DNA of 64,000 bases from IMG/VR virus record IMGVR_UViG_3300010311_000130; one strand, 5' to 3'. The position numbers were made by a program, and so were the translations under genes. Positions 3,235-53,162 of the stretch are shown in pieces (the first letter of the stretch is position 1; each line of letters begins with the position of its first letter). Origin of the DNA: a virus. Below the pieces are notes generated by a model. The model was not told where the DNA came from, ran no database searches, and worked only from the letters and a program-made list of their open reading frames with translations.

Positions 3235-4347
3235 GTGATAGTAGTGTTAAAAAGTTACAAGTTTAGACTATATCCCAATAAAGAACAGGAGTTGCTCATA
3301 CAAAAGACGTTTGGTTGCGTGAGATTCGTGTATAATCAATGTTTGGCATATAAGATAGACAAATATAAAACCGAAGAAGTGTCTTTGTCTAGGATAGATG
3401 TAAACAATTATAAGAATCGCACTCTCAAAACTGAATATGAATGGCTCAAAGAAGTTGATAAATTTGCCTTAGATAATGCTGTTATCAATCTTGATTCAGC
3501 ATATCAGAAGTTTTTTAGAGAACGCAAAGGATTCCCTAAATTCAAGAGTAAAAAAGACAATCGCAGGTCTTACAAGACAAATATCACAGGCTCAAATATC
3601 GAGGTTGATTTTGATAGTCGTAAAATCAAACTGCCTAAACTCAAATGGATAAAATCAAGAGGATTAAGATGTTTTGATGGCAAAATCAAATCAGCCACAA
3701 TTAGTCAAACTCCAAGTGGCAAGTATTATTGTTCTGTTCTTGTAGAACAAGAAGATTATAGTCCATTTGCTGAGACTGGTTGCGATGCGGGAATTGACCT
3801 CGGTATTAAAGATTTTGCTATCACATCAAACGGGGACAAAATATCAAATCCAAAATATCTTGCCAAGTCTGAAAAGAAGCTTGTTAAGTTGCAGAAACAA
3901 CTATCACGAAAGTCAAGTGGTAGTAACAACCGCAACAAAGCAAGAATAAAAGTAGCGAGAGTATGGGATAAAATTACTAATCAGCGCACAGACTTTTTGC
4001 AGAAACTTTCTACAGAGTTGATACGCAAATATGATGTAATCTGCTTGGAGGACTTGAACGTGGCGGGAATGGTAAAGAACCATTGCCTTGCAAAGTCAAT
4101 ATCAGATTGCTCATGGAGTGAGTTTGTGAGAATGTTGCAATACAAGGCTGATTGGTATGGTCGGACTATCTCAAAGATAGACAGGTTCTATCCAAGTTCA
4201 CAGACTTGCAGTTGTTGTGGTTATGTAAACCCTGAGACTAAAGACTTGTCTGTGAGAGAGTGGGTCTGTCCTGATTGTGGAGCAACACATGACAGAGATA
4301 TTAACGCCGCCAAGAATATCTTAAAGCAAGGATTATTAGCAGTCTAA
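3235..4347 (+). CDS. tnpB: TnpB RNA-guided endonuclease
   Basis: N-terminal YKFRLYP HTH; RuvC residues in GIDLG, LEDL and DRDINAA all present; Zn finger CSCCG...CPDCG. Confidence 0.95.
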
Positions 4348-6800: not shown

Positions 6801-7826
6801 TTATTCAATTGCCTTATTAATCATATCATCAATCTCTTTTATAGCTTTATAAGCATTGCCTTTAGCTAAATGTGCTTTCATAGAATTAATGATTTGCAGA
6901 AGATGTTCTTTTGTTATCTTATTTGTTTTGTATGCTTTTATAAGTCTTTTAATTTTATGCCTACGTTTAGTATATCTTTTCTTGTCAGGTAACATAAGAA
7001 CTTTGCCTGTATCAGTAATTTTATATTTCCAATGCAGATACATGATACCGTGTTTTATCTTCTGTAATACAGTTTTGTTATTTAATTCAAGGTCAATCCC
7101 TGTGAGATATGCTTCTATATACTCTTTAGCTTCAATTAATTGTTCTTTACTTTCGCTTACCAATATAAAATCATCCATATATCTTGTATAGACCTTTATA
7201 TGTAATTTCTCCTTTATAATATGGTCAAGCTCATCGAGATAGAATAAAGCTAATAATTGACTGACCTGACTTCCTAAACCAAGCCCTCTATCACCAAAGC
7301 TATCAATTATCATGTATACCATATATAGGATATGTTCATCGTCAATGCGTTCCGCAAGTTTATCCTTTAATATATCGTGATTGATACTTTCAAAGAAATG
7401 ATGTACGTCACACTTTAGATAATAACCATCATTGCCATGTTTACGGTAATACTTCTGCAATTGTCTTTTAAAATCATTTAATACAAATGTAGTTCCTTTG
7501 CCTTTCTGACAAGCTCCATTGGAGTGTATAAAGGATTTTGTAAGTAAATCATATAGAGTTGTATCACACACACTTCTTTGTATCTGCCTGTCTCTGATTT
7601 TTGTTGCTGTTATATGCCTTAACTTAGGTTCATAAATGGTAAAGTTCTGATACTCAGATAACTTATACTTGCCAGACTTTATATCTCTTAAAGCCTTTGC
7701 AGTATTCTTTAAACCATTCATTTCAAACTGTGTTACAGATGTTTTCCATCTTACATTCTTACAGCACTTCTTCAATCCCTCATACATATTTTTAAAGTCA
7801 AGATATTCTTGTTCCAATATTATCAT
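6801..7826 (-). CDS. DGR reverse transcriptase
   Basis: YMDDF catalytic motif, GLGSQVSQLLA (DGR-type SQ motif), LKCDVHHFFESI, RDRQIQ; start moved to ATG 7826 behind GAGGAAG; adjacent to TR and avd. Confidence 0.95.
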   Translation of the reverse strand: MIILEQEYLDFKNMYEGLKKCCKNVRWKTSVTQFEMNGLKNTAKALRDIKSGKYKLSEYQNFTIYEPKLRHITATKIRDRQIQRSVCDTTLYDLLTKSFIHSNGACQKGKGTTFVLNDFKRQLQKYYRKHGNDGYYLKCDVHHFFESINHDILKDKLAERIDDEHILYMVYMIIDSFGDRGLGLGSQVSQLLALFYLDELDHIIKEKLHIKVYTRYMDDFILVSESKEQLIEAKEYIEAYLTGIDLELNNKTVLQKIKHGIMYLHWKYKITDTGKVLMLPDKKRYTKRRHKIKRLIKAYKTNKITKEHLLQIINSMKAHLAKGNAYKAIKEIDDMINKAIE

Positions 7827-7985
7827 CTTCCTCACTTGTGGATAGCGAAGTATCTCGTAAGAGACACCTCGCATCAAGTGTTAATTTTGTTGGCATTTCT
7901 GCCAAACAGGTTAATCTTTCCTTGCAAAAATGGTACGACTTTCACTTTCGTTACTCGTTCTGACCAAGTTCATTATTTCTGTAAT

Positions 7986-38472: not shown

Positions 38473-40326
38473 CTATTTATAGGATTTAGCCGCACGACCA
38501 AAGAAACAGAGTTCTTCTTCGACTGGCTTCGGCTTGTTTATAATATTGCCACGCCTTAATTCATATAGTCTATGAGCTAACATGATTAAAACGTAGAAGC
38601 GGTCATCGTGCATACGGTTTTCTTTCTCTTTTGACAAAGCATAATTAACCGTTGTCCTTTCCGCATTTTCAGTTTTATGAATTGAAGTAACCTCATTTTT
38701 CATAAGGTCAATTTGTATTAATGCCATTTTTTCATCGTCCGACAACTCATGGTTTACCCATATCTCGTTGCCATCATTGTCTATGCCTTCGATAACTTTT
38801 ATAAAGTCTTGCCCTGAATATTCATACGGGAACTTGATTGCCCCTAAATCCATAAGCTCAATCATTTCTTCAACCATCTGGGTACGATATTTCTTAGGAC
38901 TTATAAGGCGCAGTTTGTCGCAAGCATTAGGGTATCGGCTAACATAGGTTTGATACAACTCATTTGTTTTATCAATAAATCCTCTGTGAGTTTTGCCAAA
39001 CTTATCCGAATAGTCGTTAAGCAATCCGTCGGCATAAGCACTAACACCACCACCGCCAGCACCACTATCAATTTCCAAGATGTCCAGAAATTCATAATCG
39101 GGATTTTGACCGTTATAAAGATTGACAAGTTTGCGCAACTCGTCTAATTGTCTGTTAGAATCAAGTTTATATTTTTGTTTAGTGGCATTATCAATCATGT
39201 TCACGCAGTTGATAATATCACCACACCAACCCAACTCTTTATCTTGGTAAATATTCATAACGCCAATAATAGAGTTATCTGCGGTACGCGCAGGATCGAA
39301 AGCTATAGCTATTTTACTGTTAGGTTTCCAATGTAAAGTAGGTAAATGAAAATTTTCATTTCTGCGAATAGTGTCCCACTTGACAATTTGACTACTTCCA
39401 CCGTCCATAGTGGGCTGATTAAAGTATTCTCTCAAAGCCTTATCTTTATTGCTTTTAAGAGCTGCTTCAACCTTGTCTCTTGTTAACAAAGGAGCATAAG
39501 GTTCACCATTCATATAGGTCTGAATTGCAACATCGCAAATCATGTCACAAACAAAATAATCTCTATCTCCGGCAATCATACGCTTTGCAAAGTTTTTATA
39601 ATGCTTGTAAAATAATTTATCCATTTGGTCTTGTGAAGAAGCATAGACTAATTGCGTAGGCACTTTTCTATGTTCTGCTTCTGGATTATAATTTTCTTCA
39701 GTAGATGTGCTAAAATCGCTATTCTGCAAAGCAAAGGCTTCACAAACTGTAATCAATTCATCTGAGCAAAAGGCACTCTCATCAAAAAAAACCAAGCTGG
39801 CGCGTCGACTTCTCGCAGAATTTGGCTTACTATTTAAGGTCTGAATTGAACTACCATTATAAAATTCAACCTCATATCCTGCTGGATTATGACTAAATCC
39901 ACTTTTGTTGGTTGCTGATTTCTTAGTCTCTTTCTCAACTATATCCTTTAAAGAACGTATAGAAGCAGCGGTTTTACCCATACGTGTAACGATTTCTTCG
40001 AGCTTTGAAAACGTTTCTTTTGCCTGATCTCCGACAGATGATACTATGTATATCGCTTGGTTTTCATAGAGAATAGCCTTTAAAATCATAAGTATCGCGC
40101 CTAAAAATGATTTTCCAAAGTTACGACAGCAACACCACACGCTATGAGATGCGTTCCATGTGCTTTGTAATATCCATTTCTGTGCGTCGACTAATTTAAT
40201 GCCCAATAAATCTTCACAAGCAATGCAGACGTTGCGCCTATAATATGCAATAGACTCAGCGTCTAACTCGCATATCTTTCGTTTTATTGGCGTAAGAATG
40301 ATTTTACGTTTCTTCATTGCCATCAC
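38473..40326 (-). CDS. Terminase large subunit
   Basis: Walker A CRNFGKS, Walker B FFDESAF, coupling YASS, nuclease AFDPAR..DNS and HDDRFY. Confidence 0.92.
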   Translation of the reverse strand: MMAMKKRKIILTPIKRKICELDAESIAYYRRNVCIACEDLLGIKLVDAQKWILQSTWNASHSVWCCCRNFGKSFLGAILMILKAILYENQAIYIVSSVGDQAKETFSKLEEIVTRMGKTAASIRSLKDIVEKETKKSATNKSGFSHNPAGYEVEFYNGSSIQTLNSKPNSARSRRASLVFFDESAFCSDELITVCEAFALQNSDFSTSTEENYNPEAEHRKVPTQLVYASSQDQMDKLFYKHYKNFAKRMIAGDRDYFVCDMICDVAIQTYMNGEPYAPLLTRDKVEAALKSNKDKALREYFNQPTMDGGSSQIVKWDTIRRNENFHLPTLHWKPNSKIAIAFDPARTADNSIIGVMNIYQDKELGWCGDIINCVNMIDNATKQKYKLDSNRQLDELRKLVNLYNGQNPDYEFLDILEIDSGAGGGGVSAYADGLLNDYSDKFGKTHRGFIDKTNELYQTYVSRYPNACDKLRLISPKKYRTQMVEEMIELMDLGAIKFPYEYSGQDFIKVIEGIDNDGNEIWVNHELSDDEKMALIQIDLMKNEVTSIHKTENAERTTVNYALSKEKENRMHDDRFYVLIMLAHRLYELRRGNIINKPKPVEEELCFFGRAAKSYK

Positions 40327-42391: not shown

Positions 42392-42448
42392 ATCGCCACT
42401 CCTTTAATTCAAATTGGTGCGCCGTCCAACATCATTGCAGTCGGACAA

Positions 42449-42472
42449 CACAAAAGCCCCGACAATCGGGGC
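42449..42472 (-). terminator. Intrinsic terminator after the recombinase gene
   Basis: Minus strand GCCCCGA TTG TCGGGGC TTTTGT. Confidence 0.7.
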
Positions 42473-42518
42473 ATAATAGGAGGAATTATAAATTGTAGAT
42501 TTCTAATAAAATGTGGGT

Positions 42519-43523
42519 TTAAACAAGACCAAACATCTCGTCGATTTCTTCTTCGTCGTGATTCATCAAATATCCTTGTGTAGTTGATATATCACTATGG
42601 TGAAGTGCTTTTGAAATTTGATCTATTGTAAACACCTTTGGTTTACCATTCTCGTCTAAAAGCCTTGTGTCTGTTCCTTGTTTCAAACACTCAGCACGAG
42701 AATGTCTCATTGTATGACAGAAGATATTACAAGGTTCACCTCTAACCTGTGAAAAGATATTTGAGATAGAAACCATTCTATTGTACAGGCAATCCTTTGT
42801 AATCTCCGTCTTAGTATCTCCAACAATCTTTACCCATAATGATTCAATATCATCATCGCCACGCTGTTCAAGATACTTTGCTATTAAATCTCTTGTATCG
42901 TCAAGATAAACGAGAGGGAATTTCTTGCCGCGTTTGCCGACAACTATATTTGTCTTATTGCCCTCTGTCAGACCTTGCTTCTTCACTTGATATAATTCAT
43001 TCTTACGGGCAGCAGAATCAAAACCGAGACTTAGCAGAACAGCGTCTTGTAATCTGCCTTTCTCTACGAGTATATCTCTCACTTTAATGAACTCATCAAA
43101 TGTAAAGAAGAAGTCATCGTCATTGTCTCTTACTCTTTCTCTTGGGAGTCCTTTGACTTTCTTAGCAAGATTGTTGTCGTATTCATAGTCATCATCTTCT
43201 TCAGCAAAGGTAAGTATAGAATTAATAGTTGCCTTCAAGCGATTAACTCTCGCAGATGACATTTGCTTTTCTTCTGAGAACCACAAACTCATACCACGAA
43301 AATCTTTCTTCTTTAACTCAAGGAGACTGCGATTTCCGAGTTGTTGTAAAACATAAATCAGTATATACCTACCATCTTGAAAATAAGCGTCGATTGTTGA
43401 TTTAGCCTTCTTTCTCTGGCGATACTCCGCTAAGAAATCTTCAAGCAGAGCCTTGTTGTCTGGGTTGACTTGTTCCCATAATTCGGGTGTATAAATCTTA
43501 TTATAGATTCTTCCACGTTTCAC
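42519..43523 (-). CDS. Tyrosine recombinase (XerC/D-like)
   Basis: Catalytic R (SAARKNE), K (GKRGK), H..RH (CHTMRH), H (LHHSD) and Y (TTQGY). Confidence 0.9.
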   Translation of the reverse strand: MKRGRIYNKIYTPELWEQVNPDNKALLEDFLAEYRQRKKAKSTIDAYFQDGRYILIYVLQQLGNRSLLELKKKDFRGMSLWFSEEKQMSSARVNRLKATINSILTFAEEDDDYEYDNNLAKKVKGLPRERVRDNDDDFFFTFDEFIKVRDILVEKGRLQDAVLLSLGFDSAARKNELYQVKKQGLTEGNKTNIVVGKRGKKFPLVYLDDTRDLIAKYLEQRGDDDIESLWVKIVGDTKTEITKDCLYNRMVSISNIFSQVRGEPCNIFCHTMRHSRAECLKQGTDTRLLDENGKPKVFTIDQISKALHHSDISTTQGYLMNHDEEEIDEMFGLV

Positions 43524-43553
43524 ATTGTCATCTCCTTACGCTCATTTTGTTAA

Positions 43554-44598
43554 TTATTTTCCGAAAAGATTATAATTTGAACAAATTTCTTTTGCTACAA
43601 GTTTGTTTTCTGATATTGCATTAAGTATTTTTCGCATATAAGAATAGTTTTCTATATACTCTTGTAACTGCTCAAAAGTATTGTTGTAAGTACCATATAT
43701 ATTATGAAATGAACCTGCAATAAACGGATTATGACAAAGTTCACATAGGGTAATGCCGTTATCTATATCTAACGCCAAATCTTTATGCTGGGCATAATTT
43801 TTTATGCGATGGGCATTAAGGTTTATGTGACCGCCACAACATTGACAAGTATAATTATCTCTTTGTAAAACAGATTTTCTCCACACTTTTAGCGTTTCAG
43901 ACTGTCTGTGTTTATAATTAGGAGATAATGTACGAGGTCTGCGTATATCAAATTGATTAGAAAATAATTTGTTATTAAGGATATAGTAAGATTTTTCACC
44001 TATTTTTTGAATTGAAAATACAGGCTCATTATTGGCAATAAAAGTTTTGTACCGAGCGTGAATATTCCTATCTGCGGTGATTCCAAAAAGAGAAAAAACA
44101 ATCCTTTATCGACAATTCTTGATTGTTCAAAATAAACCTATTTCTTTCAAAATCGTATAAAGGCAAGCATCTAAACATATAAGACATTGTTTTGTGACTG
44201 TGTAAATCAACGGAGAAATACAAATCTCGAAACATATTAATATTTATCAGCATTGCTACTTTATCATTTTCTTTTATATCTCTCGTATCTCTTGAAACAA
44301 GAGAATTAGGCAATTTGATACTTTGAGTTTGTTCATCTATTTCAAAAAGTTTTGCGTCCAAACATTCTTTATAAAAACTTCTAAACGTATCTTCTTTCAA
44401 CTTCAAACGCTCTTTGCACATTTCCTTTGTCATTAAAGCGTTATTTCCGGACTTTAATGTTCCGTCATAACTCAGAAATGTAGCCATATACAAATACCGT
44501 ATATAGTTTGAAGAAGATATTCCCCAATCAACAATTTTATTTCTATCAAAAGACAATCTTATGAATTTCTCCATACACACCATTTCCAATCTCACCAT
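43554..44598 (-). pseudogene. wHTH protein fused to an HNH endonuclease, split by a homopolymer frameshift at 44093-44098
   Basis: Removing one T from the T6 run joins ORF 44068-44598 to an open frame (DCFSLFG...) that continues into WRKSVLQRDNYTCQCCG...AHRI...NGITLC..CH. Confidence 0.8.
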
Positions 44599-44696
44599 TC
44601 AAAGATTATAAAGGCAGAAGTGAATGGTGACACTTGTCAAGAGAATGATCGGTTCTCTCTATCTGCCTTTAATGCTTATAGCGTTGACGACACGCT

Positions 44697-44742
44697 TGGT
44701 CACGGTGGACTGAGTTGCACAGTCACTTAAACTCCTACCGTG
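44697..44742 (-). ncRNA. Armless tRNA-like minihelix ending in ACCA
   Basis: CACGGTA + 11-nt linker + GACTG-TGCAACT-CAGTC + CACCGTG + A-CCA; six acceptor pairs plus one A-C mismatch. Confidence 0.5.
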
Positions 44743-45091
44743 ATAATGCGCACCTTTACATTGTGCTGTAAACGGTATAATGCGCAATATTCAAGCACGA
44801 AAATCAATATGCAAACTGTGCGCACAGCCTACATTATGCAAGAGATGCCTGAAAACTCTTTCCTTGAAAGACCTACCGTGGTACGCTTGCAACAGAGGCA
44901 TGGTAGGTACATTATCTTCTATGAGGTGCAGTTTCGCAAACAGGCGGTCATAAACTCTACCTGAGAGGTACTTGCTACACCCTATTTGGGGCGGACTCTA
45001 AGGAGCGACCTCAGACCAGGCTATCCGCATATAGGCGGCATAATTACTGACTGCCGCCGTGTCAGTGTCGGTTTCCTCCGATAGGAAGGAG

Positions 45092-45167
45092 TGGTGAGCA
45101 ATTCCAGATTTGCACTGAATACTTTGTCATCCTTTGTGACAACGCTTTACTACCAAGCTCATTGCCC
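45092..45167 (-). tRNA. Non-canonical tRNA-like gene, 76 nt, anticodon position AAG
   Basis: Acceptor GGGCAAT/ATTGCTC + A-CCA; D stem GCTT/AAGC; anticodon stem TTGTCA/TGACAA, loop CAAAGGA (A33 instead of U33); T stem TTCAG/CTGGA, loop TGCAAAT. Confidence 0.7.
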
Positions 45168-45249
45168 ATAGGGGACTCTGCCCCTATTACAGATATATTT
45201 TACTTCCCTCTCTTTGGGAAGAATTACAAGCCGACTTGCGGCTATATAA

Positions 45250-45603
45250 TCAATAACAATGCATGAACCAAGACTCGTTATCCAGGAACGAATCGTCCAC
45301 AGTGATAGTGCAACCCACCATATAGCTCTGCATCGGATCAAAATACGGAGTAATAGCAGAACGTGGCACGTAATAACCGTACCAATATTCCGTAGTGTTC
45401 TTATCCGCATTCAGCAGAACGAGAGTGTAGGCTGGCTGTATATTGTAACCATTACTGCAGGTGCCGCACAAATGCTGCCGAAGCACGATGACTTCCGTCT
45501 GCCACCACCAGTGAAATGCCTGTGCCTTACTCGGCTTAACAAATGGAAGAGTGACAAAACACAGTGCGACGCTCATGAAAAGTGCTAAAATCTTATTCTT
45601 CAT
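45250..45603 (-). CDS. Putative secreted protein
   Basis: Sec-type signal peptide MKNKILALFMSVALCFV...KAQA; GAGG RBS. Confidence 0.7.
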   Translation of the reverse strand: MKNKILALFMSVALCFVTLPFVKPSKAQAFHWWWQTEVIVLRQHLCGTCSNGYNIQPAYTLVLLNADKNTTEYWYGYYVPRSAITPYFDPMQSYMVGCTITVDDSFLDNESWFMHCY

Positions 45604-46437: not shown

Positions 46438-47634
46438 TTATTCTCTCCTTTGATTCAATTTAATAGTGTGCTTAGTGACAAGCCCGTTTCCTTCTTCAAA
46501 AATGAGCATTGTCGCACTCGCATTAGATGATCTCATAAGGCTGGTACTATAATCATCAATACCAATAATGCTTCCAACTGAAATCCCTTCACAGTCAAAT
46601 CCGTATTCTTCAGCGTGATGTTTGTGTCCACCTATGAGATAATCAACTCTAAGACCATAAAGCCTTGAAAGATTGTCAATGGCGGTCTTGAGAGATTTTA
46701 CTTCTCCATGTATTCCCATAAGATTATATCCAACGACATTAGCGTAGATATAGCCAGTAGGATTCTGAGTGATAGTTACGCAAGGATTGTCCTGCAAGCG
46801 TGTCTTAATCGTATGAATAATTACCTTGCTAAGATTTTCACCCTTAAAGGCATTCTTGGGTGCGGAGCAAAGTCTAAGCTGGTTGTGGTTACTGTCCTCT
46901 ACCATCTGTAAATCTACATTTACAAATTTGCTGACTTCATTTATCCAATTAGCCATGAAATCGGCATAGATAAGGGCAGAGTCAATAACACCCCATCTAA
47001 GCTTAAGCAAATTGTCGGTTAAGCGCAAAAGTCCGTCGTTGTCATCTCCAAGACCAAAGATATGCAGAGATGTTATATTTTCTCTCTCACAAATCTCCTT
47101 GACTTTATCTCTTAGATACCACATACGCTGATAGAATATTTCGGGGCTATAAGAATTAAGAACTTCTCCGAATAAGCCCTTAATCTCAAATTCAGTATTG
47201 AAATGTGCATCAGCCAAGCAAAGAACTGCACCACGATTATTCTCGGCGATACTTCTCGGAGAAGGAACATCAATAGGCGTAAGATTTGCTATACCATCTG
47301 CAATTCTTTCATACACCATTTCTTCTCTGGCATTATCTCTAAGCCAACGATTATATTCCAGTTTATCAGTCTGCAACTTCTTGCGTTCTTTTTCAAGCTC
47401 ACGCTTCTGGATTTCAAGTTCCTTGCCAACAGAATCAGCATTGCCAACACACTTCTTAATGGCACTATCCATGAGATTCCAATACTCGTAAGCTTTTCTA
47501 TAACAAGCCTCAGAATAATCACGATGTAGCCTTTGATTTAATACATTGGCAACTTCCTGCCAACTTCCGTACTGCTCCTTTTTAGAACATACTTCCCAAA
47601 TAACAATGTATTCAGAATCGGTAAACTTCTTCAC
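46438..47634 (-). CDS. Calcineurin-like metallophosphoesterase with N-terminal HTH/coiled region
   Basis: Motifs LADAH, LGDDNDG, DSNH, GIHGE, GGHKHH. Confidence 0.85.
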   Translation of the reverse strand: MKKFTDSEYIVIWEVCSKKEQYGSWQEVANVLNQRLHRDYSEACYRKAYEYWNLMDSAIKKCVGNADSVGKELEIQKRELEKERKKLQTDKLEYNRWLRDNAREEMVYERIADGIANLTPIDVPSPRSIAENNRGAVLCLADAHFNTEFEIKGLFGEVLNSYSPEIFYQRMWYLRDKVKEICERENITSLHIFGLGDDNDGLLRLTDNLLKLRWGVIDSALIYADFMANWINEVSKFVNVDLQMVEDSNHNQLRLCSAPKNAFKGENLSKVIIHTIKTRLQDNPCVTITQNPTGYIYANVVGYNLMGIHGEVKSLKTAIDNLSRLYGLRVDYLIGGHKHHAEEYGFDCEGISVGSIIGIDDYSTSLMRSSNASATMLIFEEGNGLVTKHTIKLNQRRE

Positions 47635-47986: not shown

Positions 47987-49411
47987 TTAAAAACTTATAT
48001 TATCTCCCATTACAGGAATATGAACTTTTGCACTCCTGTCTGCCTTGCTCAAACTATCACGCAACAGCTTTGCAAATTCTTCCTTGCCAGATTTCTCACC
48101 ATGCACCAAATAAATCTTATTATATGGCATAGCGATATATCTGTCAAGCAATTCCGACCTACAAGCGTGACTTGAAAATGATGTAAGTTGCATTACATTA
48201 GCTCTGCTTCTCACACGCTCACCGTCTATTGTTACCCATTTCTTGCAATGCTGAATTTGATAAGCAACACTGTTTTCATCGCCTGCGTACCCACAGAGGC
48301 AGATACGAGCGTTTTCATTTGGCAATACGGATTTGAGCCAACTTACCACACGACCTGCTTTAAGGAAGTTGGAAGTCGTTATGACCACCTGCGAAGTCTG
48401 CAACTTCTGCCATTGCTGAGATTCCTCATAGGTGCCAACCCATACGATGTTCTTCCAAGAGATAACTTTCTTCCAAAGGTTATTATCCCTTTCTATAAGT
48501 TTATCCCATATATCAGTAATCTTCCTGCCCAATGGCGCGTCTATTATAATTGGGGTTGCAAATGTTTCATCTTCACCGTATATCTTATACAGTGTAGTTA
48601 ATATATCCTGTAAGCGATTAAGTGAGAATGAACCAAATACAACCTTTTGTGTGTCGTGCTGACAACACTGGTCAACAACACACTTAATTTTTTCAATATC
48701 TTTAAGTCTATCTTTCTGCTTATGTGTCTTGTGGCTTCCACCATAAGTACACTCAGCCAGTAATATATCACAGTAGGGCATAGGCTCATAAGGTAAAAGA
48801 TATTCTTTATCTATGTCACTTCCAATGTCACCAGTAAATCCCAAGACTTTAGTGGCTTCACCAATCTTAAAGCTCAGTCGCACCTGTGCCGCATTAACAA
48901 TATGGCTTGCGTGATAATAATGCAAAGTCAAATCGTCAAATAGAACTATGTCCTCGCCAAACGGTAATTCAACCAAATGTTCAAGTGCAATCTCAATATC
49001 TTCTTGTGTGTATAAAGGTGTTGCGTTCATATCATAACGCTTTTCAAGTTTTACACAGTCGCCCTCAAATATCTTGAGACTATCTTCCCACATTATACGG
49101 GCAAGTAATTTGTTGCCTTTGGGGATATAAACATTGCCACGATAGCCACGAGCAAACAGATAAGGAACTACACCACAATGATCTATATGAAAATGGCTGA
49201 TAATTACAGCGTCAAGGTCGGCAAAAGGGATTTTATAATTCCTATGGTTGACCTTATACTGTTTAAGAATATCATCTCCACTCGTCTGATATAATCCAGC
49301 ATCCAAAAGAATTTGCTTGTCATTATAGGCGATATAGTACATTGAGCCAGTAACACCATCACCAGATTTACCAACAAATTCTATTTTTACCTTTTCTTTA
49401 CTTTTTGCCAT
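47987..49411 (-). CDS. MBL-fold beta-CASP ribonuclease
   Basis: LLDAG, SHFHIDHCG (HxHxDH), ASHI, FTGD, AECTYG, FSSHAC and LVHGE motifs intact. Confidence 0.9.
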   Translation of the reverse strand: MAKSKEKVKIEFVGKSGDGVTGSMYYIAYNDKQILLDAGLYQTSGDDILKQYKVNHRNYKIPFADLDAVIISHFHIDHCGVVPYLFARGYRGNVYIPKGNKLLARIMWEDSLKIFEGDCVKLEKRYDMNATPLYTQEDIEIALEHLVELPFGEDIVLFDDLTLHYYHASHIVNAAQVRLSFKIGEATKVLGFTGDIGSDIDKEYLLPYEPMPYCDILLAECTYGGSHKTHKQKDRLKDIEKIKCVVDQCCQHDTQKVVFGSFSLNRLQDILTTLYKIYGEDETFATPIIIDAPLGRKITDIWDKLIERDNNLWKKVISWKNIVWVGTYEESQQWQKLQTSQVVITTSNFLKAGRVVSWLKSVLPNENARICLCGYAGDENSVAYQIQHCKKWVTIDGERVRSRANVMQLTSFSSHACRSELLDRYIAMPYNKIYLVHGEKSGKEEFAKLLRDSLSKADRSAKVHIPVMGDNISF

Positions 49412-49422
49412 GAGGCGACACC

Positions 49423-50049
49423 TCACAGTATAGAATCAAGGTCTGTAACTACTTCGTCAACCACGCCCAGTTCAATCTGCTCAGAAGTGGGCAAATACCA
49501 ATCTTTAGACTGATTTTTCTTCATCAAGGATTTATCAATCTTAGTCTTGCTTACGATAAACTCCCTCATTTCTTCAATCATCTTTTTATAAGACTTGGTG
49601 CTTTCCTGTATATCCTCATAATTACCACTAATTCCTTGCGCGCTACCACTATGGATGAGTACCTGTGATCTCGGCATACAATATCTCTTGTGTCCTGCCA
49701 TAAGAATAAGCCCAGCTGCACTATATGCACAATTCATATTGACTGTAATTATAGGAGTCTTTGATGTTTCCATAATTGCAATAGTGGCATATGTACTATC
49801 TAAACAACCGCCGCCCGAATTTATAAGTATAACTATCGGAGTGCGCTCATCAACCGACTTGTCCTTATCTTCACGATTATACTCAATAATCTGTCTGCCA
49901 ACCTCACGCAGAAGTGTATCGTCTATATCGTAGTCAATAAATATAAGGCGATTCTTTCTATCGGCGTAAGCGTCAAGCAACATGGGATTTGGCAGTTTGA
50001 GATTTTCAAGTTCCGTAGGTATTTCCAGAAGCATTGTATTTTCGTCCAT
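49423..50049 (-). CDS. ClpP-like serine protease
   Basis: INSGGG, CAYSAAG (catalytic Ser) and LIHSG (catalytic His). Confidence 0.88.
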   Translation of the reverse strand: MDENTMLLEIPTELENLKLPNPMLLDAYADRKNRLIFIDYDIDDTLLREVGRQIIEYNREDKDKSVDERTPIVILINSGGGCLDSTYATIAIMETSKTPIITVNMNCAYSAAGLILMAGHKRYCMPRSQVLIHSGSAQGISGNYEDIQESTKSYKKMIEEMREFIVSKTKIDKSLMKKNQSKDWYLPTSEQIELGVVDEVVTDLDSIL

Positions 50050-50513: not shown

Positions 50514-53162
50514 TCAAAGATTTTCGGTTGTATGCCCCTTAATGCTATGATGATTTGTCCGTTTATCTTTGCTATTTATATACTTTAATCTATACTTTTT
50601 CTGACACTCAGAGCAACGACATTTACCATTAACTCTCTTTATCTCAACCCCACAATCAACACACACATATCCGTACTTCAACTTATTAGCCTGTATATTT
50701 TCATAGACTATATCGCCATAAACATGGAAGAAAAATTCCTTGCAACGAGAGTCTTTAAAAATATTATGATCCTTAAACATATCCTGAATAAGCATATCGC
50801 ATATCTCATATTGGGCATAATCGAATTGTTGCATAACCGATACAATATCGTTGATAGCCACAGAATTATTTATTTCTTCTTTCCCATGTTTGAGTTTTAC
50901 TGTCGATACGACATCACTATATGCCCTTAAAACACTTTCGTCCACTTCAATATCTGGGTTATTCATTAACATACGATAGTCAAATCTGCATTTATCTGTA
51001 AAACCAAGCTTAAATTCATTTTCGGGATAGAGTGTTTTGATACGATTTACTATGCAATCATTGATAGGTTCAAGTTGCTCTGGTTTTTTATCTTTTGCAT
51101 ATTCAAAGAATGCTGGCAATTTCTTATTTACATATTTAGAAATAGTTTCCTTAACATTCTTCGGCGGTGTGCTTTTGTATAAAGTTTTGGCGAAATCTAT
51201 AATTTCATTATTGACCATTGTACTGAATTTCAAACAATCAATAGCCTCTTGTCTTGTTTCGGGTTTTCTAATTTCTTGACTATTCTTTATTTTACTAATA
51301 TTATTGCTTATCACTCCAATATTACCACCAGTAAACGCAACAGACAGTCCTTTGTATCTGCTTTCACTTGTTATAGGTTCTTTAGCTGCTTTACGCATAT
51401 TATAATACAAAGACACAATGCCAGTTTGATTTCTTTTAGCAACATCAATAATATTCTGGTCTTGCAGAACAAGTGTTCTGTCACCGTCAGTGTCAAACTG
51501 CAAAATTTTACTAATTACATCATGTGTGCTTGTGTAACACCCTTTAGTCAAAAACCATTTTTCTTTTTCTTCATCAGTAACATTTCGACGTATTGCGTGT
51601 TCAAAATATAAGTGAGGACTCCTAAGACAATCTACTTCTTTGCCAAACTCGTGCAATTTACAATATACCTCGCCATCAGCCAATAATCCCGTCGGAACTT
51701 GAATACCCATAAACAACCATTCACTAAATGCATAAAAATCTGGAAGTAAAAATGTGTAATAGCCATTCACTCTAAATTTGGCGGAATATAAATCTTTTAT
51801 AAGTTTTTTTCTAAAATCACGAAGTCGGTCTCTGAAATAACTATCTTTTATTAATCCATTATATTCCATAAGGCATTTTTGCATACCATTATACTTATAA
51901 TAAGGCTTACCTTCTTTAATGCCAAACATTTTAAACTGCACTTCTTTATCAGAACAAATTCCATTAATAAAGCTGACACTATCCGAACACATCTTCTTTA
52001 GTTCAATATCTTTATAATCTATGAAACTTTGAATCATCTGGTAATTGATAGAAGCTCTTTTAAAATAATCTTCCTCTACATTGCACTTGCCAGCACGACA
52101 ACCATACTTTTTAAAACGACTCTTATAATCGTCCCAACTATCATAATAAGCAGCCATTTTAAGTTGACTCTTTGTGAAAATTATTTGTATATTATCTTCA
52201 AAAATATCCCATTCTTTGCCCCACATATCTTTCACTTTTGTAGAACAACCATTTTCCTTTATAAATGCCTTAAAATCAAATACTCCAAGCAATCCTTTTG
52301 TCCACGGCATACGCACCATAAAATTTTTATCACTTAATTCTGGGCTAATCATTCCACAACCATCCGTATGGGAAATGGGAACTGGCATAGTTTGACGAGT
52401 AATACTATAATCCCTATCATCAACATAATCAACTTCTGTAACTACATTAGTCTCAAAATCATCAACTACAATACATCTATCTATATCAAAATCTTTCCAT
52501 TCTTCTGTAGCCGATCCGCAGAGCGCAAGATAAGCATTGTATTTATTGAGATTCATACCGCCTTTACTATTAATTTCCTCTACAGTAAGACCGCAAGCAA
52601 GTCTATTCCAATTCTTATTAAGTAAATCTTCTCGTACAAATACAGCCTTCTTAGTGCGGATTTGACCCGCACTACTTGCAAAGTACACATATTTAACACC
52701 GTTATGATAAAAGCCACTATGTATTAAATGTTCAAGTATTTCAAAGTAGAATACTGATATAACCATCATTTGCTCATTAACTTCTGTGTTTTCTACGGTT
52801 TGACGCACATCGAGATTTAATGGTTTCATATTTAAGCAACGAGTTAATTCACTATCAAAAACCGATATTCTATTGTAAGGATTAAGCTTTGCAGGATTGA
52901 CGCTCCTACGGCGAGACATATTGCATCTCATCATAGAAATAAGTTTTTCTTTCGACAAAGCAAGTTTCTTTGATACTTCATTATATTTGTCTTGCACAAT
53001 AATACGCACAGCATCGTCCAAATCTTTGTTCTTTAAACACTCTCGATAACATCCTTTAACATTGCGGAGTTTGTACATTTTTTGTTCAAGGTTTCGTTCT
53101 TCGTCGAAATAGAACGCGCTGGTGTCCAATCCATATATACAATATTGTCTATCAAGTGCCAA
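50514..53162 (-). CDS. yonO: YonO-like single-subunit double-psi beta-barrel RNA polymerase
   Basis: TTG start behind GGAGGG; SSAGQIRTKKAVF, HTDGCGMI, RMPWTKG, LRSPHLY and the Mg-binding LQFDTDGD motif; 882 aa. Confidence 0.9.
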   Translation of the reverse strand: MALDRQYCIYGLDTSAFYFDEERNLEQKMYKLRNVKGCYRECLKNKDLDDAVRIIVQDKYNEVSKKLALSKEKLISMMRCNMSRRRSVNPAKLNPYNRISVFDSELTRCLNMKPLNLDVRQTVENTEVNEQMMVISVFYFEILEHLIHSGFYHNGVKYVYFASSAGQIRTKKAVFVREDLLNKNWNRLACGLTVEEINSKGGMNLNKYNAYLALCGSATEEWKDFDIDRCIVVDDFETNVVTEVDYVDDRDYSITRQTMPVPISHTDGCGMISPELSDKNFMVRMPWTKGLLGVFDFKAFIKENGCSTKVKDMWGKEWDIFEDNIQIIFTKSQLKMAAYYDSWDDYKSRFKKYGCRAGKCNVEEDYFKRASINYQMIQSFIDYKDIELKKMCSDSVSFINGICSDKEVQFKMFGIKEGKPYYKYNGMQKCLMEYNGLIKDSYFRDRLRDFRKKLIKDLYSAKFRVNGYYTFLLPDFYAFSEWLFMGIQVPTGLLADGEVYCKLHEFGKEVDCLRSPHLYFEHAIRRNVTDEEKEKWFLTKGCYTSTHDVISKILQFDTDGDRTLVLQDQNIIDVAKRNQTGIVSLYYNMRKAAKEPITSESRYKGLSVAFTGGNIGVISNNISKIKNSQEIRKPETRQEAIDCLKFSTMVNNEIIDFAKTLYKSTPPKNVKETISKYVNKKLPAFFEYAKDKKPEQLEPINDCIVNRIKTLYPENEFKLGFTDKCRFDYRMLMNNPDIEVDESVLRAYSDVVSTVKLKHGKEEINNSVAINDIVSVMQQFDYAQYEICDMLIQDMFKDHNIFKDSRCKEFFFHVYGDIVYENIQANKLKYGYVCVDCGVEIKRVNGKCRCSECQKKYRLKYINSKDKRTNHHSIKGHTTENL

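Follow-up and report, generated by a model that had tools for sequence, protein, structure and literature searches.

What does the top half of a tRNA, with an encoded CCA end and no anticodon, do in the genome of a bacterial virus? Minihelices that join an acceptor stem to a T arm are laboratory constructs and have been proposed as the ancestor of tRNA. The question is raised by a 46-nt element in a stretch of 64,000 nucleotides of viral DNA (IMG/VR record IMGVR_UViG_3300010311_000130), the whole of which is called the window below.

Geometry and predicted fold of the 46-nt element

The element runs from 44742 to 44697 on the minus strand. Read 5′ to 3′ on that strand, it consists of the acceptor 5′ strand (44742–44736, 7 nt), an 11-nt linker (44735–44725) which replaces the D and anticodon arms, a T stem of five Watson–Crick pairs (44724–44720 with 44712–44708) around the T loop TGCAACT (44719–44713), the acceptor 3′ strand (44707–44701), which forms six Watson–Crick pairs and an A·C mismatch at pair 7, and the encoded 3′ end ACCA (44700–44697); only the top half of a tRNA is kept. 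The armless minihelix and the single mismatch described in the initial annotation are borne out by these coordinates, and the neighbouring tRNA-like gene (45167–45092) does carry the variant T loop TGCAAAT which had been compared with that of the 46-mer.

The strict geometry occurred 0 times in 300 simulated, dinucleotide-matched 64-kb sequences; under a relaxed rule, there are three matches in the region 42400–45250 as compared to a null mean of 0.017. An assembly artefact was ruled out by a contig from an independent sample (run X2), which covers 43841–45018 and has zero differences within the element, and the 46-nt form was seen again in other loci (L004 and L131–133). ARAGORN reports 0 tRNAs and no tmRNA, Rfam has no tRNA match over the element, and none of its covariance models, those of Y RNA, GOLLD, ROOL, 6A and DUF3800-I included, matches 44697–44742 at E values up to 5; blastn of the region versus cultured phages gave no real match. 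RNase P RNA, Y RNA, GOLLD/ROOL and tmRNA were rejected as candidates, having no support from Rfam or ARAGORN. The element is a real and conserved RNA gene overlooked by annotation tools.

The predicted fold deserves a cautious reading. With ViennaRNA the acceptor stem of the 46-mer has a probability of about 1.0, the T stem of only about 0.05, and the minihelix fold (−11.2 kcal/mol) lies above the minimum free energy structure (−13.7 kcal/mol; z −1.4). The T stem is disfavoured since its T-loop side is also open to pairing with the linker, in an energy model that ignores T-loop geometry and coaxial stacking across a large bulge; both predicted folds are hairpins with the ACCA at their end. The proposed T stem is supported by its geometry and by a single compensatory pair within family B, to which the 46-mer belongs.

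A tRNA-derived family with a shrinking lower half

With a covariance model, 13 loci carrying family B were identified at 58–96 bits, the next match having 20 bits. Three forms exist: one of 76 nt (L068, L079), one of 63/64 nt (L002, L041, L045, L047, L048, L082) and the one of 46 nt (the window, L004, L131–133), which is a short allele of this tRNA-derived family; the long forms are commoner (8/13 loci). Acceptor stem, T arm and CCA are constant, while the lower half shrinks from 41 to 28/29 to 11 nt, and in the 76-nt form, known from two near-identical sequences only, the T arm occupies positions 49–65, the standard placement in tRNA. A lack of conservation had been named as an argument against the minihelix; what is found is a family present in 13 loci whose stems covary. 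In nine of its sequences, 97% of the cells are paired and six pairs show two-sided changes (four of them acceptor pairs, one a T-stem pair and one located in the arm of the long forms), as opposed to none in slid controls, a count which is not to be read as a probability because the sequences are related. A further search for arm variants of family B gave zero new members, and the 17-mer of the T arm had 42 matches in metagenomes, 37 or so of them due to chance.

Instead of D and anticodon arms, the long forms have a single irregular arm, which covaries at pair 17–39 and the helix of which (8–11/41–44) is 100% paired; an anticodon loop is absent. A rewired decoding tRNA, with its D arm placed after the anticodon arm, was rejected, as neither the 63- nor the 76-nt form contains a 5-bp stem with a 7-nt U33 loop. 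By alignment, the 46-mer lacks 17 nt of the long form, which hold a 12-nt palindrome flanked by the near-repeats TTCA and TTTA, and the linker (44725–44735, minus strand) is the remnant left after loss of this palindromic arm. The three short variants differ in the repeat copy they retain, and their variant letters are shared with different long forms, a pattern suggestive of either repeated deletion or subsequent recombination; all three retain a perfect T stem, a 6-bp acceptor and ACCA.

Pair 7–66 is an invariant A·C and G55 is invariant throughout family B, pair 3–70 is C3-G70 or A3-U70 but never G3·U70, and acceptor identity varies (C1-G72/A73 versus G1-C72/G73). The top half is closest to the phage tRNA-Glu(UUC) genes of the arrays (19–20/32 letters, versus 15/32 or fewer for the tRNAs for Asn, Met and Trp), although this best match is inflated because the Glu genes are the most varied group sampled. 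The outer acceptor pairs are shared with the tRNA-Glu gene of L061/L063, and the T stem of the 76-nt form is that of the tRNA-Glu gene of L060/L070/L134. A descent of family B from phage tRNA-Glu is suggested by these similarities.

The tRNA-Glu(UUC) genes are peculiar themselves. At least six divergent ones exist in the clade (L060:4237–4314, L070:5174–5251, L079:1971–2048, L134:4257–4334; L061:4337–4412; L108), some with C1-G72 and one type with the T loop AGCRTCG, which suggests a pressure on tRNA-Glu. Several loci also encode a tRNA-Met(CAU) which is initiator-like in having a G·A mismatch at 1–72 (L045:12259–12332, L062:4503–4576, L080:4304–4377).

A fixed slot between structured RNAs

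Directly upstream of the element lies a leader module, a hairpin between two copies of GCGCATTAT (44743–44785, minus strand), which marks the slot and the tail of which gives A(−2) and U(−1) at the predicted RNase P site 44743/44742. In all, 28 slots marked in this way were located, in 26 loci, of which 19 had been reached via neighbouring proteins or another motif and not via the family B motif. All slots (28/28) are filled, exactly at the leader end (GCGCATTAT), 11 with family B, 13 with real tRNAs (Glu, Asn, Met) and 4 with a 35-nt linker-free minihelix; tRNA-Asn is the exception in that it begins 2 nt after the leader end. In L081, the closest relative (97% in the upstream protein), the flanks are identical to those of the window, and the slot holds a different minihelix, of 35 nt. 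A trailer hairpin (44680–44696, minus strand) begins directly after the CCA, and in relatives it lies downstream of other cassettes, namely the minihelix of L081 and the tRNA-Met genes of L062 and L080. Upstream of the cassette, a structured spacer RNA of 121 nt (44743–44863, minus strand) comprises nested stems followed by the leader hairpin, and 7 of its 35 predicted pairs have two-sided changes among eight sequences. Comparison of the relatives shows family B to fill a fixed slot between conserved spacer RNAs of predicted structure. In other samples, contigs join or switch where a cassette ends (44985/6, 45167).

The spacer (44743–44863, minus strand) could also form a pseudoknot between AAGAG and CTCTT and has no Rfam match. 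Spacers between cassettes of relatives do match the Rfam motifs 6A and DUF3800-I (L004:4598–4649, L041:11186–11237, L069:5016–5067; L125:5312–5435, L079:2074–2184); the matches concern these spacers only and not the element of the window, and they give the two orphan motifs a context, phage tRNA arrays. A host chromosomal RNA was dismissed because, among 151 genomes searched, model R1 matched the phage contig alone.

Could the element be the 3′ end of something larger, a tRNA- or tmRNA-like RNA of 184 nt beginning at 44880 or of 365 nt beginning at 45061? Two upstream stretches can indeed pair at 6/7 positions with the acceptor 3′ strand, and one of them, a second CACGGTAGG at 44880–44872 (minus strand), had been proposed in the initial annotation as an alternative 5′ strand. 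This copy is present, but it closes its own hairpin, within a module (44868–44910, minus strand) which is independent of the element: 7 arrays have the module but not family B, and 6 of the 11 arrays with family B lack the module. The probability of pairing with the 3′ strand of the element is 0.0–0.1, covariation involves the adjacent 5′ strand, and neither a tmRNA match in ARAGORN or Rfam nor G3·U70 is found. The 184-nt form is extremely improbable and the 365-nt form was rejected along with it. Two related hairpin modules of this type, with the interior GCCTCT…CAAGC and a TCTTT tail, occur in the window (44868–44910, minus strand) and upstream of family B in L002, L004, L045, L047 and L048.

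The precision with which modules swap, at +1 and after the CCA, also brings to mind a cassette that works as DNA, either as an att site with a tRNA 3′-end core or as an attC-like hairpin, for the integrase-like tyrosine recombinase encoded 1.2 kb downstream of the element (42519–43523); the 3′ 11 nt of the 76-nt form are, moreover, identical to a host tRNA-Pro. Such a role is very unlikely, as the 5′ strand covaries with the 3′ strand, a covariation unneeded for an att core, the T arms are unlike those of host tRNAs, the same cassettes occur in arrays without an adjoining integrase gene, and no duplicated copy flanks the integrase.

Further non-decoding cassettes

Besides the 46-mer the window contains three more CCA-ended non-decoding cassettes, all on the minus strand. 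Family A (45092–45167) is a 76-nt cloverleaf with covarying acceptor and T stems, of which a 54-nt form exists in L068; its acceptor, D and T arms are conserved but its anticodon arm and loop are not, and it is therefore not a decoding tRNA. Family D (44987–45028, 42 nt, CCCA end) is a 48-nt deletion allele of a 90-nt form, and it has 35-nt linker-free relatives; run X2 holds an insert of about 48 nt at 45018, that is, it lacks the deletion. The top five acceptor pairs of family D are those of tRNA-Gly(GCC) of bin G001, and its discriminator is not U. Family C (42415–42451, ACCA end) is a perfect, linker-free minihelix of 37 nt and 12 bp (z −4.0), with 24 distinct sequences in 35 loci, located after a hairpin and TTTT and about 10 nt ahead of the next ribosome-binding site; it is a cleaner case than the 46-mer. 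A search of 401 genomes with a loose family-C pattern gave mostly chance matches.

G55 is found in families A, B, C and E, as compared to TTC in 20/21 real tRNAs of the arrays. Pair 2–71 is a G·U or U·G wobble in most members of families A, C and E, possibly an anti-determinant. The predicted cassettes of the clade measure 35–76 nt, fall into at least five families and swap between slots.

Arm loss has occurred in three unrelated families (A from 76 to 54 nt, B from 76 via 63 to 46 nt, D from 90 to 42 nt), each time leaving the top half intact, and the linker-free minihelices of 35–37 nt in the same arrays are conserved with covariation, so that this clade maintains RNAs consisting of a “top half only”. 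This bears on the idea that the working gene is the one-armed RNA of 63–76 nt and the 46-mer a tolerated, damaged allele arising from recurrent palindrome-driven deletion. A palindrome between near-repeats is a deletion-prone layout, and the deleted 17 nt hold just such a perfect 12-nt palindrome. The arm covaries in the long forms, which are also commoner, the lineage of the window has lost 48 nt of family D as well while a near-identical phage retains them, and the 46-mer is predicted to misfold. That the allele is broken is nevertheless unlikely: a perfect T stem, the 6-bp acceptor and ACCA persist in three different short variants, the cassette is in no case lost entirely, and the even shorter minihelices of the same arrays are conserved with their covariation.

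The phage, its relatives and the host

The window derives from an SPbeta-like phage with a YonO-type polymerase: it encodes homologs of YonO (50514–53162, 43% identity), YonJ (46438–47634) and the terminase (38473–40326), to which the relatives add matches to YonK and YonG and contigs of about 105 kb. The non-coding cassette array sits between the yonK/yonJ and the yonG/terminase homologs, and orthologous arrays contain real genes for tRNA-Glu, Met, Trp and Asn. A phage with YonO has a single late operon (PMC5467207). In the syntenic regions of SPbeta, Geobacillus E3 and one faecal phage the scan found no such cassette; as SPbeta has none there, YonO operons do not need them. One relative was found in a Eubacteriales bin, and the bin holding one such phage encodes a type A RNase P RNA.

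Some features of the surroundings may be added. Upstream of the array, the window encodes a β-CASP metallo-β-lactamase nuclease (47987–49426, minus strand), in place of which some relatives have PhoH; an obligatory role of this nuclease in processing was rejected because L082, L131 and L134 have PhoH there and yet carry arrays. A reverse transcriptase (RVT_1; 6801–7877, minus strand) and a TnpB-like gene (3235–4347, plus strand) are also present. At 44093 (ORF 44068–44598 and HNH ORF 43554–43886) the window has one base more than runs X2 and X3; its 176-aa ORF therefore probably ends early owing to a frameshift in a T run. Protein searches with the 117-aa ORF gave no matches, and neither did a search for the 140-aa gene in GTDB genomes. 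The phage contig of bin G001 carries, on the other strand, a second tRNA cluster (L202; G001:C34 72351–73059), which encodes tRNAs for Lys and Gln as well as an unusual one that is called as Ser(AGA) but ends in a Pro-like C1-G72.

A signal for RNase P?

The best reading, to which we give a probability of about one half, is that the 46-mer serves as a tRNA-derived punctuation signal telling the RNase P of the host where to cut a long late transcript. In a tRNA, the parts contacted by RNase P are the acceptor and T stems and RCCA; the remainder is dispensable, and U−1 and A−2 are optimal for the enzyme (PMC11221534). Among the non-decoding cassettes of the clade, U(−1) is found in 68/69 contexts (28/30 when each distinct 6-nt leader is counted once) and A(−2) in 50/69 contexts; the contexts, like the 28 slots, are not independent because the loci are related and recombine. 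Host tRNAs have the same bias (U(−1) 36/46, A(−2) 32/46), so the leaders say “processed like tRNA” and no more. U(−1) and A(−2) are, furthermore, part of the leader module, which the real tRNAs in the slot could have shaped. The 46-mer begins with C and not with the commoner G at +1, giving C1-G72 where G1-C72 is usual for an RNase P site, and in longer contexts the energy model pairs the leader partly with ACC.

The mechanism would run as follows. The array, placed between the yonK/yonJ and yonG/terminase homologs, would be read as part of a long late transcript, in which RNase P of the host would cut at 44743/44742 and so leave the structured RNA upstream with a defined 3′ end protected by a hairpin. 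A second cut downstream, followed by exonucleolytic trimming to the CCA, would free the 46-nt by-product, which G55 and the missing anticodon might keep out of translation. The selected trait would be a cuttable tRNA top half in the slot, in which case the arm could be lost without cost. That any tRNA top half would suffice may explain why the slot is always filled, why cassettes exchange with real tRNAs and why arms were lost repeatedly. Transcription of the array, cleavage and the purpose of the spacers are inferred. The low T-stem probability predicted for the 46-mer counts against punctuation, and pure punctuation leaves unexplained the covarying arm of the 63–76-nt forms, the coexistence of several families, and two family-B acceptor ends which match tRNA-Pro and tRNA-Asp of the host.

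Acceptor ends and a possible role in trans

In the initial annotation a processing signal had been offered side by side with a decoy against tRNA-targeting defence nucleases. The former suggestion gains from the covariation, the always-filled slot and the RNase P-optimal leaders. The latter fails for anticodon nucleases, because an RNA without an anticodon cannot divert them; only enzymes which read the acceptor end could be decoyed. What may be considered, as possible but not probable, is that the freed CCA-ended RNA acts in trans, either as an acceptor-end decoy for defence toxins which recognise the acceptor stem together with CCA (toxSAS such as FaRel2 or CapRel, MenT nucleotidyltransferases, GNAT toxins) or as a substrate of a non-ribosomal synthetase, RNase P processing then being merely the route to making it. 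FaRel2, from a gut Firmicute, reads pairs 1, 2, 4 and 5 and efficiently modifies a tRNA-Gly minihelix (bioRxiv 10.1101/2024.07.05.602228).

The acceptor ends were compared with the tRNAs of bin G001 as a stand-in, which may not be the host of this phage. One family-B variant matches the Pro(CGG) end (12/13 letters, p 0.004) and another the Asp(GUC) end (13/13, p 0.003), although 31 acceptor ends were tested and both best p values become about 0.1 each after correction; family D resembles Gly(GCC) (11/13, p 0.03–0.07) with a changed discriminator. The variant of the window shares its outer five pairs and ACCA with a phage tRNA-Glu of the same slot, and the quick turnover of cassettes resembles an arms race. 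On the other hand, a host tRNA match is lacking for most cassettes, particularly those of family C, the end of the window itself has no host match in G001 (9/13, p 0.26) and is absent among the tRNA ends of 251 genomes of the class, members of family B differ in acceptor identity, and the host matches could stem from the swapping of acceptor ends with tRNA genes. It is rather doubtful that the clade keeps a swappable library of natural minihelix genes with acceptor ends borrowed from tRNAs as counter-defence decoys.

Significance

The clade naturally encodes minihelices, down to a perfect form of 12 bp and 35–37 nt; reduction in steps from 76 via 63 to 46 nt is visible inside one family, as are exact-end swaps with real tRNAs. 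The cassette system, with natural 35–37-nt minihelices exchanging with tRNAs, is the surprising part, and the single 46-nt allele is modest beside it. Since tRNA finders and Rfam miss all the cassettes, phage tRNA arrays are under-annotated. Punctuation by RNase P, if true, would explain how a single late operon of the YonO type is cut into small RNAs and messages, and would make the cassettes portable RNase P sites of 35–46 nt; a decoy role, if true, would represent a novel type of RNA counter-defence, directed at the acceptor end and not at the anticodon. On either reading, the role of non-decoding RNAs in phage tRNA clusters, such as RNA C and RNA D of T4, becomes testable with very short substrates.

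Comparison with known systems

No description of natural phage minihelix genes or of tRNA-mimic decoys was found in the literature searched, which lay mostly outside subscription journals. Canonical tRNA (RF00005) shares with the 46-mer the acceptor stem, the T arm with G53-C61 and C56/A58, and NCCA; missing are the D and anticodon arms, replaced by the 11-nt linker, and the U54-U55(Ψ)-C56 of the T loop, family B having its invariant G55, while the 76-nt form lacks an anticodon arm of 5 bp with a 7-nt loop. The phage tRNA-Glu(UUC) genes of the same arrays have the D arm and anticodon loop that family B does not have. The alanine identity pair G3·U70 and the distant, tag-enclosing 5′ strand of tmRNA are both absent from the 46-mer. 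Armless mitochondrial tRNAs of nematodes and mites keep the anticodon arm and have lost D and T arms; the 46-mer, with a T arm and no anticodon arm, is the opposite.

Synthetic minihelices, which serve as model substrates for RNase P, synthetases and toxSAS (PMC11221534, bioRxiv 10.1101/2024.07.05.602228), have the same geometry of 7+5 bp with T loop and NCCA, and families C, D35 and E35 are natural copies of them; the 46-mer differs in being natural and gene-encoded, and in its 11-nt linker, its A7·C66 mismatch, C1-G72 and G55. In the eukaryotic mascRNA/MEN-β, a structured RNA receives its 3′ end when RNase P cleaves at a small tRNA mimic located downstream of it. The mimic there is a small cloverleaf to which CCA is added post-transcriptionally, and a triple helix lies upstream. 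This resembles the role proposed for the 46-mer, with no relation in sequence.

The t-elements of plant mitochondria are non-decoding, tRNA-like, equipped with a T arm and found bordering other RNAs, and they have been proposed as cis signals for RNase P (PMC1920247). Common to them and the 46-mer is a conserved, tRNA-like but non-decoding fold, in which the energy model disfavours the T stem of the 46-mer, and the RNase P determinants appear to be present in the 46-mer as well (acceptor helix, RCCA, U(−1), A(−2), and a leader unpaired with the CCA outside the longer contexts). The likeness to t-elements and to tRNA punctuation rests on sequence, the ends of the 46-nt RNA being predicted. Differences are that the 46-mer belongs to a bacterial virus, has an encoded CCA and a body of acceptor and T arm, and alternates with tRNAs.

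A similar setting is found in phage T4, whose RNA C and RNA D are about 120–140 nt long. These small non-decoding RNAs (species 1 and 2) are encoded in the tRNA region of the phage and their role is unknown (PMC3014915). Like the 46-mer they lie in a phage tRNA array; they are proven stable RNAs, whereas the cassettes described here, of 35–76 nt, are known from their sequences.
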